64,000 nt of DNA, taken from Candidatus Latescibacterota bacterium (GTDB lineage: Bacteria > Latescibacterota > UBA2968). This document shows positions 27,916-28,095 of the stretch, piece after piece. The stretch spans positions 2,880,001 to 2,944,000 of the forward strand of contig OZ242195.1 in assembly GCA_965205975.1 (NCBI GenBank), read 5' to 3'. Every line of letters starts with the position of its first letter. The first letter of the stretch is position 1. The notes under the pieces were generated by a model. It was not told the DNA's origin. It worked only from the letters and a program-made list of their open reading frames with translations, and did not search any database. The translations under genes were made by a program, and so were the position numbers.

Positions 27916-28095
27916 ATGGCAACACGACGCAAGTTGAATTTGATCAATGGAGCGATAGATCAAGAAGGTAGCATTCTTATGTATCAAACTGTGAATAGTT
28001 TTGAAATTGGCTGCGCCCCTTATTCTTTTACCGTTCCCCTCGTGCCTTTCCCTGATAATGATGACGATTGGGACGATTTTGATCAGTCTGAGTGA
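27916..28095 (+). CDS. 59-aa putative RiPP precursor peptide
   Basis: SD AAGGAGG + ATG; MATRRKLNLINGAIDQEGSILMYQTVNSFEIGCAPYSFTVPLVPFPDNDDDWDDFDQSE; directly upstream of an RRE-rSAM-SPASM gene. Confidence 0.78.
   Translation: MATRRKLNLINGAIDQEGSILMYQTVNSFEIGCAPYSFTVPLVPFPDNDDDWDDFDQSE

Follow-up and report, generated by a model that had tools for sequence, protein, structure and literature searches.

A short gene at 27916..28095 on the forward strand of the window (the whole 64,000-nucleotide stretch of a Candidatus Latescibacterota genome that was analysed) was interpreted as encoding the precursor of a three-gene sigma-54 cassette. In this interpretation, which is held tentatively, at slightly less than even confidence, the peptide would be closed into a ring between Cys33 and the block V40-P46, and the ring would be the ligand of the TPR domain of the cassette's own activator, giving a self-regulating loop. 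The order of elements is a kinase-STAND-TPR-GAF sigma-54 activator, enhancers, a sigma-54 promoter, the peptide, an RRE radical-SAM enzyme and variable cargo. The succession of activator, promoter, peptide and enzyme recurs at the level of genus, family, order and class. Of the 21 genomes of this genus, 16 contain two or three cassettes, and the present genome contains three.

The precursor gene and the anatomy of its peptide

Translation gave 59 residues with one cysteine (Cys33), the stretch FTVPLVPFP at residues 38–46, and eight acidic residues among the last 13 (D47, D49, D50, D51, D53, D54, D56 and E59), all as the initial annotation had described. Its choice of start codon was also right. 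The Shine-Dalgarno sequence AAGGAGG (27904..27910, forward strand) lies 5 nt ahead of ATG 27916, and a GGAG-type sequence preceded the matching ATG in all 30 cassettes examined, whereas the alternative in-frame ATG at 27883 was kept in just three of them. A start at 27883 was ruled out on account of this poor conservation, and the comparison supports the start at 27916.

Conservation of the frame, which had been left as a point to be checked, was found both in databases, with 56 other proteins like the peptide (identity 52–95%), and in genomes, with 38 copies in 16 of the 21 genomes of the same Ca. Latescibacterota genus. Of these parts of the gene, compared over 30 cassettes, dN/dS was lowest in the V-P-x-x-P-F-P block (0.12), followed by the tail (0.24) and the leader (0.37). 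On this comparative evidence, the ORF is a real conserved gene under purifying selection. The peptide had no family match in Pfam or NCBIfam, its profile gave only chance matches in the PDB, and an Rfam scan of 27400–30800 gave no match. A match in the ESM Atlas to fibrinogen C-terminal clusters (score 0.91, 150–158 shared features) was judged to be chance.

Residues were counted in 88 distinct sequences of the genus whose tail is intact; the filter dropped two database entries that look frameshifted. All parts of the gene lie on the forward strand. The leader (aa 1–32, 27916..28011) carries the motif K-L-x-L-[IV]-N-G at aa 6–12, which is predicted to bind the RRE. In the orthologue alignment that the initial annotation had called for, L-x-[IV]-N-G was the best-conserved part of the leader, with L7, L9, N11 and G12 invariant in 57 of 57 sequences; the Asn was kept in 13 of 13 rows, distant homologues included. 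Cys33 (28012..28014), the likely thioether donor, was present in 87 of the 88 sequences and in all 11 distant precursors. It is followed by a hypervariable loop of six residues (aa 34–39, 28015..28032; five residues in L042), where dN/dS was about 0.9 and near saturation, and then by the fixed block V40-P41-x-x-P44-F45-P46 (28033..28053), which keeps a constant register with the cysteine and likely holds the acceptor residue. The Asp-rich tail (aa 47–59, 28054..28092) varies in its number of Asp residues. Among 38 cassettes there were 32 different 14-residue cores.

The spacing around the cysteine was asymmetric. Among the 87 sequences its distance to the leader slipped (position 33 in 48, 34 in 38 and 32 in one), while downstream there was Val at +7 in 85 (one Ile), Pro at +8 in 87, Pro at +11 in 85, Phe at +12 in 86 and Pro at +13 in 86. 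A Cys-to-Val register that is fixed downstream and slips upstream favours a downstream acceptor.

Eleven distant precursors, encoded beside enzymes 42–53% identical, kept the leader motif as L-x-x-[IV]-N and had a core Cys with a stretch rich in Pro or hydrophobic residues after it (the L148 precursor was read across a frameshift). The +7 residue was Val or Leu in the six sister-family peptides and Phe, Tyr or Pro in the five deeper ones, and Cys was the sole residue after the leader to be kept at all depths. None of the 11 had an Asp-rich tail; several had basic tails and some an additional leader Cys. The tail is best read as a genus-specific follower, one of the roles suggested for it initially; it would serve solubility or handling and would not be the crosslink partner. 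In L040 and L091 the peptide stops early, past the Asp run, and its distance from the enzyme is greater than usual by about 260 bases.

The maturase and the predicted crosslink

The gene following the peptide encodes an RRE - radical SAM - SPASM maturase (28125..29555, forward strand; the ORF runs from 28092 and the likely start is ATG 28125), so that the initial proposal of a precursor-type gene coupled to a radical-SAM enzyme was borne out. The closest solved relative was CteB (E = 1e-57, PDB sequence search), which was also the best fold match of the maturase model (pLDDT 91.6; TM 0.75 to 5WGG, 28% identity), with anSME second (TM 0.61). All NCBIfam scores were below cut-off: TIGR03974 was best with 261 of 425 bits, followed by QhpD (TIGR03906, 252 of 453) and PapB (NF047865, 220 of 340), while anSME (TIGR03942) gave 112 bits against 349 and the cyclophane-type families 71–91 bits against 370–450. 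The maturase family formed its own clade (support 98), apart from the SCIFF enzymes and with catalytically dead copies as its sister group. Few 50%-clusters exceeded 35% identity to the maturase, which was carried by 25 of the 168 genomes of the phylum searched.

It is very probable that the RRE of the enzyme binds the L-x-[IV]-N-G leader and that the peptide is the enzyme's substrate. The resemblance of KLNLING to SCIFF leaders, noted at first by eye, stays at that level: profile-profile comparison of the leaders with 12 SCIFF precursors was not significant (E = 0.65 and 0.19), although in the second of the two alignments KLNLINGA was paired with the SCIFF KHIKT stretch.

With residues numbered from codon 28137, C112/116/119, C349/367/418 (aligned with AC1 of CteB) and C405/408/414/437 (AC2) were kept in 42–43 of 43 homologues, and all 10 cluster cysteines are present in the maturase. 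The ligands of CteB and PapB are given in the available text of PMC10177961, which also has the substrate Cys or Sec binding AC1 in PapB and Tte1186. An extra cysteine, Cys346, three residues before the first AC1 ligand, occurred in 41 of 43 enzymes and could fill the open AC1 site used by thioether maturases. Ser-Ser follows C367, where the counterpart in CteB is His363-Gln364 after the corresponding AC1 Cys (PMC10288494, available part). At the position of PapB Arg372 (second AC1 Cys plus 2), 12 family enzymes compared had Ser or Ala; this Arg (C370 plus 2) is described as essential in the accessible part of PMC9413430.

Cys33 would bind auxiliary cluster 1 and probably forms one thioether. 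The foremost candidate acceptor is Val40, seven residues on, giving an eight-residue ring, although for Val40 itself confidence stays rather short of even. A literature search found no precedent for Val as a thioether acceptor; radical thioether acceptors are not necessarily acidic, as NxxcB illustrates (PMC9389541, available text), and a side-chain-blind alpha link at +7, of the sactipeptide kind, would fit the data equally well. The enzymes were 87–93% identical whichever loop they accompanied and their distances did not correlate with those of the loop (rho = 0.00), as expected of a loop-blind cyclase.

Other uses of Cys33 were weighed against a single thioether to the block. As one of two alternatives, the initial annotation had proposed a single Cys-Asp/Glu thioether macrocycle, considered here as a ranthionine from Cys33 to the acidic tail (13–15 residues enclosed) or to Glu30. 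Asp does occur at +15 in 76 of 87 peptides and at +16 in 82, the maturase scores 220 bits with the PapB family, and PapB tolerates varied spacing (0–6 residues tested, according to the available text of PMC9413430). However, the first reliable acid comes 14–16 residues after the cysteine and its distance is unfixed: the first acidic residue was at +14 or +15 in 66 of 87 and at +1 or +4 in 21, and the number of Asp varied. Furthermore, Ser stands in place of the Arg needed by PapB, the tail was missing from 11 of 11 distant precursors though their enzymes keep the same active-site loop, and Glu30 slips one residue relative to Cys in 38 of 87. This proposal is weak at best, and its chance was considered slim.

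Aromatic side-chain crosslinks at Y36, F38, F45, W52 or F55, the second initial proposal, are scarcely credible. F45 (86 of 87) and F55 (52 of 53) are conserved in the genus, but Tyr36 was found in 31 and Phe38 in 34 of the 87 peptides and Trp52 was replaced by Arg in 11 of 53, so that crosslinks at these three positions are unsupported. The scores of the cyclophane families also fall far under their cut-offs, and the invariant cysteine would be left unexplained.

The sulfatase substrate motif is C-x-P/A-x-R, and C-x-P was found in 54 of 87 peptides. This recalls oxidation of the anSME type, in which Cys33 would become a thioaldehyde and then formylglycine, possibly with backbone cleavage and with no ring formed. 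In its favour, Cys alone is kept after the leader at all depths, the extra enzyme cysteine may saturate AC1, anSME is the second-best fold match, and such a reaction would account for the absent peptidase. It was nevertheless judged very unlikely: the Arg of the motif is missing (+4 Arg in 9 of 87), the TIGR03942 score is less than a third of its cut-off, the enzyme has an RRE and is nearer to CteB, and a second partner is called for by the constant Cys-to-Val register. The preferred reading is still a single thioether that links Cys33 to the block.

In six deeper loci (L125, L126, L148, L149, L150 and L156) the enzyme was followed by a second, diverged copy. These copies were without CxxxCxxC and retained the RRE and part of the SPASM cysteines, forming the pseudo-enzyme clade that is sister to the active family; Cys346 was absent from the two active partners of pseudo-enzymes that were checked. 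At L149:3773-6157 and L148:10248-11609, right after the enzyme, an RRE-like N-terminal domain (by eye) was joined to a family-9 glycosyltransferase (Pfam, L149). This fusion suggests that the peptide may be glycosylated in the L148 and L149 lineages.

The proposed sigma-54 circuit and the tracking of sensor and peptide loop

The initial interpretation was partly supported, as described above, but had overlooked the sigma-54 circuit as well as the correspondence of the sensor with the peptide. Upstream of the peptide, a giant sigma-54 enhancer-binding activator is encoded in a 1666-aa ORF (22602..27602, forward strand; homologues start at Met 22782). Its Pfam domains are Ser/Thr kinase, STAND-type AAA, TPR (TPR_MalT, TPR_12), GAF, sigma-54 AAA+ and Fis HTH, and the kinase, Walker and GAFTGA motifs were intact in 32 homologues. 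Between activator and peptide lie three copies of an enhancer-like inverted repeat, identified at the level of motifs (27615..27632, 27637..27654 and 27718..27735), and a -24/-12 promoter, GG-N10-GC, read directly in the sequence (27845..27861, forward strand). Such a promoter preceded the peptide in 36 genus cassettes and in five of six sister-family cassettes; by the strict pattern it was not found in the deepest loci. A sigma-70 promoter scan stayed at chance level.

The type of helix in the activator HTH predicted the type of repeat in 16 of 16, 12 of 12 and 8 of 8 cassettes (36 in all). The 16 type-A cassettes each had 5–6 type-A half-site matches, compared with 0–1 in the 20 others, and TGTATCAT was found in 8 of 8 type C cassettes and 0 of 28 others. 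Across the genome, which contains rpoN, the window's repeat type occurred upstream of just one of 26 sigma-54-like promoters. Promoter, inverted repeats, GAFTGA activator and rpoN are all those of a sigma-54 enhancer-controlled operon, at motif level, and the activator in all probability binds the three repeats and fires the promoter. Between enhancer and promoter, a conserved element at 27794–27823 resembles an IHF site and overlaps a terminator-like hairpin. The giant activator was frameshift-split or shortened in L021:12760-17617, L028, L030, L038, L046 and L054, one of which is a paralogue of this genome; either error or decay would produce this.

The TPR domain was the most variable region of the activator, with mean identity of 68% at aa 861–960 against 83–87% for the kinase, STAND, GAF and AAA+ domains. 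A scan of 39 activator windows over 30 cassettes (31 were aligned; L042, with its shorter loop, was omitted) showed that after correction only the windows at aa 860–1019 tracked the peptide loop (rho = 0.31, 0.31 and 0.25; family-wise p = 0.001, 0.001 and 0.03). The same windows did not track the leader (rho = 0.07–0.08). For the segment aa 820–1000 (25059..25601, forward strand), which was picked after the scan and is the most variable part of the TPR, the partial correlation with the loop was 0.28 (p = 0.0007, permutation inside HTH types; 32 of 39 cassettes, seven being without the segment or having a short loop), and among 17 type-A cassettes it was 0.50. The GAF and HTH domains and the enzyme gave values of about zero, and the enhancer DNA did not track the loop either, though all of these lie closer to the peptide gene. 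That the TPR tracks the loop while the DNA between does not suggests a receptor-ligand pair.

Phylogenetic analysis of 28 cassettes agreed: mapped onto a tree of the remaining cassette sequence, the Tyr-x-Phe loop type changes four times, and onto that of the TPR segment, once. L022 and L029, which differ in HTH type, paired with support of 99 on the TPR tree and had the same loop type; in L021 and L050, the TPR motifs mismatched their own loop group. The segment was modelled as a superhelix (pLDDT 87.8) whose best fold matches were LGN TPR-peptide complexes, and it is predicted to form a peptide-binding groove. The most variable helices (816–832 and 896–912) each come first in their repeat, a position from which the helices of TPR proteins line the groove. 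Contigs of close strains in public DNA runs diverged from the window exactly at 25069–25163 and 25455–25563, within the TPR, and at 27969–28058, at the peptide loop, which shows that the TPR segments and the loop vary within samples.

Several tests bear on an unlikely alternative, that of an ordinary RiPP cassette, in which a Cys thioether peptide acts outwards in antagonism or host interaction, the activator responds to another cue, and nothing but ancestry or recombination history is common to loop and TPR. For cassette pairs across HTH types the correlation was not significant (rho = 0.10, p = 0.2), without the eight Tyr-x-Phe cassettes it was weaker (rho = 0.22, p = 0.056), and the independent-pairs test had just two pairs on well-supported branches (sign test p = 0.5). 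The kinase domain tracked the loop weakly (partial 0.19, p = 0.02) and so did synonymous sites at aa 780–899 (rho = 0.29–0.33), from which it follows that the shared history of recombined blocks contributes. Streptococcal RaS-RiPP operons are, moreover, driven by a separate peptide signal (PMC13361665, available text), and exporters, S8, CPBP, M16 and C39 peptidases and many glycosyltransferases were present at certain loci. Against this alternative, the GAF, HTH, enhancer and enzyme sequences between or beside the tracking segments do not follow the loop, the activator is the only other constant gene, and the cargo is unconserved, comprising regulators and flagellar export genes with no fixed maturation or immunity set. 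Loop-TPR tracking is good but inconclusive evidence, suggesting a ligand-receptor pair; it is modest, and kin are not independent.

The genes following the enzyme were surveyed through 125 representative proteins, among which no peptidase or exporter was common to the cassettes. At the window locus, where the adjoining genes include no peptidase or transporter, the cargo is a sensor-less sigma-54 activator (29666..30656, forward strand) whose opening codons do not share its frame in the present assembly. The window has A5 at 29686–29690, while of eight other loci compared, six have A7 and one A8; contigs of two public runs carry an extra AA here, so the frame reflects either an allele or an assembly error. 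A sensor-less activator was found in 12 loci of this chromosomal position, and a methyltransferase-like family (labelled by eye; no Pfam match at 1e-7) in 15 loci. Other cargo included glycosyltransferases, response regulators, ABC permeases, assorted peptidases and flagellar export genes. In a paralogous cassette of this genome (L022:1-4128), a Gly/Ala-rich ORF of 126 aa, bacteriocin-like and with a Cys motif at its end, was found with a CPBP protease and a C39 peptidase-ABC exporter, behind two glycosyltransferases. At L125:5347-8931, a deep cassette is closely followed by the flagellar export genes fliO, fliP, a fliR-like gene and flhB. The region 30758–34024, a fusion (by eye) of a PHP-type nuclease-like domain and a UvrD-like helicase, adjoins this cassette position downstream, as a fixed neighbour, in 12 loci.

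The lack of a conserved peptidase or exporter, together with activator domains that are all of cytoplasmic types, would also suit a peptide that stays in the cell, its modification state telling the activator how active the oxygen-sensitive enzyme is, which depends on SAM and iron, with allele matching to insulate the two or three paralogous cassettes. The catalytically dead enzyme copy in six deeper loci looks regulatory, and no two cassettes of one genome had an identical core (16 genomes). However, cores were no more different within genomes (0.605) than between them (0.647), giving no sign of selection for insulation, and in one case an identical core was shared by four different genomes, as shared signal types would give. 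Such an intracellular reporter was considered improbable.

The preferred mechanism is that the modified peptide binds the TPR groove and alters the state of the activator, each peptide allele needing a matching TPR allele, a step considered about as likely as not; the variable downstream cargo would be the output. In a bolder version, which is rather doubtful, the peptide would be an allele-specific pheromone with a one-Cys ring (maybe a Cys-Val thioether), and the TPR groove of a kinase-STAND sigma-54 activator would read it directly; cassettes would exchange loop and groove jointly and use different cargo operons for their output. Peptide signalling would here take a new form, in a phylum of diderm sponge symbionts.

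Contigs from five sponge and coral metatranscriptomes contained related cassettes at 80–95% identity, single contigs spanning peptide and enzyme; these runs had been located by means of the present stretch, their shares were below 0.1, and the contigs, which are no sign of transcription, carry no weight as evidence here. A metagenome scan with the GAF alignment gave no match, and one with the enzyme gave 25 loci with four family members and zero full cassettes. A genome study of sponge Latescibacterota (PMC12993501) lists antiSMASH ranthipeptide and RRE clusters, which are not described in its available text. The literature search found no description of the cassette; most subscription papers were outside its coverage, and the supplement of PMC10288494 (about 15,000 RRE radical-SAM proteins) might list the enzymes.

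At the least, the cassette adds an uncharacterised precursor family and an enzyme clade with an altered active-site loop and a natural single-Cys substrate. An enzyme that is blind to the loop (87–93% identical across 32 cores) offers chemistry that is easily tested and possibly useful for macrocyclisation. Should the peptide prove to be the ligand of the activator, a STAND-type sigma-54 activator would gain a named ligand, ranthipeptide-like products would act directly in signalling, and specificity could be tested on some 30 natural pairs of peptide and receptor.

Comparison with known systems

The closest comparison is with CteA/CteB and SCIFF (TIGR03974; 5WGG/5WHY), where, likewise, the gene of a small precursor immediately precedes that of an RRE-radical SAM-SPASM enzyme. 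CteB is the best sequence and fold match of the maturase and has in common with it the AC1/AC2 Cys pattern and the first four of the six catalytic-site-proximal residues given in the available text of PMC10288494; the leader motifs look alike by eye. However, SCIFF precursors have six Cys in about 45 residues, while the present peptide has one in 59 and no NCBIfam match; the maturase scores 261 of 425, forms its own clade, has Ser-Ser and an extra Cys, and acts on a peptide with a hypervariable loop in a sigma-54 cassette of two or three copies. With one Cys in the precursor, a maturase below the TIGR03974 cut-off and no significant profile match to SCIFF precursors, the pair falls outside SCIFF (TIGR03973/TIGR03974). 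It does show the gene arrangement of a ranthipeptide system in the wider sense, an RRE-fused radical SAM enzyme with CxxxCxxC and SPASM beside a small precursor.

PapA/PapB (freyrasin; NF047865) and QhpC/QhpD (TIGR03906) resemble the pair in their scores of 220 and 252 bits, and in PapA, as here, the Cys comes immediately behind a leader that contains a conserved Asn (PMC9413430, in the part available). They differ in that the scores lie below the cut-offs of 340 and 453 and that the present pair has no CX3D motif or PapB Arg372. No amine dehydrogenase genes, the context of QhpC/QhpD, were found in the annotated neighbourhoods. There was no short fixed Cys-Asp/Glu spacing and no Arg two residues after the second AC1 Cys, which places the pair outside these families. 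Neither a conserved aromatic three-residue motif nor a matching maturase family pointed to cyclophanes or aromatic crosslinks. The anSME enzymes (TIGR03942; PDB 4K36-4K39) share the SPASM fold (TM 0.61) and act on one Cys; they differ from the maturase, which has an RRE and a small peptide as partner, and membership is further contradicted by the rarity of Arg at +4 (9 of 87) and by the score of 112 of 349. On sequence criteria, the peptide-enzyme pair would work like a ranthipeptide or sactipeptide pair that lies outside the SCIFF, PapA/B, QhpC/D, cyclophane and anSME families.

The proposed sensor recalls RRNPP systems (ComR/XIP, Rgg/SHP), in which a cytoplasmic TPR-type sensor coevolves with a peptide. 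ComR/XIP provides the precedent for such coevolution (PMC8605241, available text), and the Rgg-controlled RaS-RiPPs one for radical-SAM peptide operons under peptide control (PMC13361665, likewise). In those systems, signal and radical-SAM product are different peptides, whereas in the present cassette the candidate signal would be the very peptide on which the enzyme acts. The RRNPP sensor is a small HTH-TPR protein of Bacillota; the activator here is a kinase-STAND-TPR-GAF sigma-54 activator of about 1600 aa, which has the predicted TPR superhelix and, at 1666 aa, is far from the small HTH-plus-TPR architecture.

The agr systems have an allele-matched receptor. By analogy only, AgrD is alike in layout, with a leader, a short Cys core cyclised via the Cys sulfur, and a charged C-terminal tail (bioRxiv 10.1101/516906, available text). 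The cassette has no AgrB, AgrC or AgrA, and the thiolactone of AgrD contrasts with the radical thioether predicted here.
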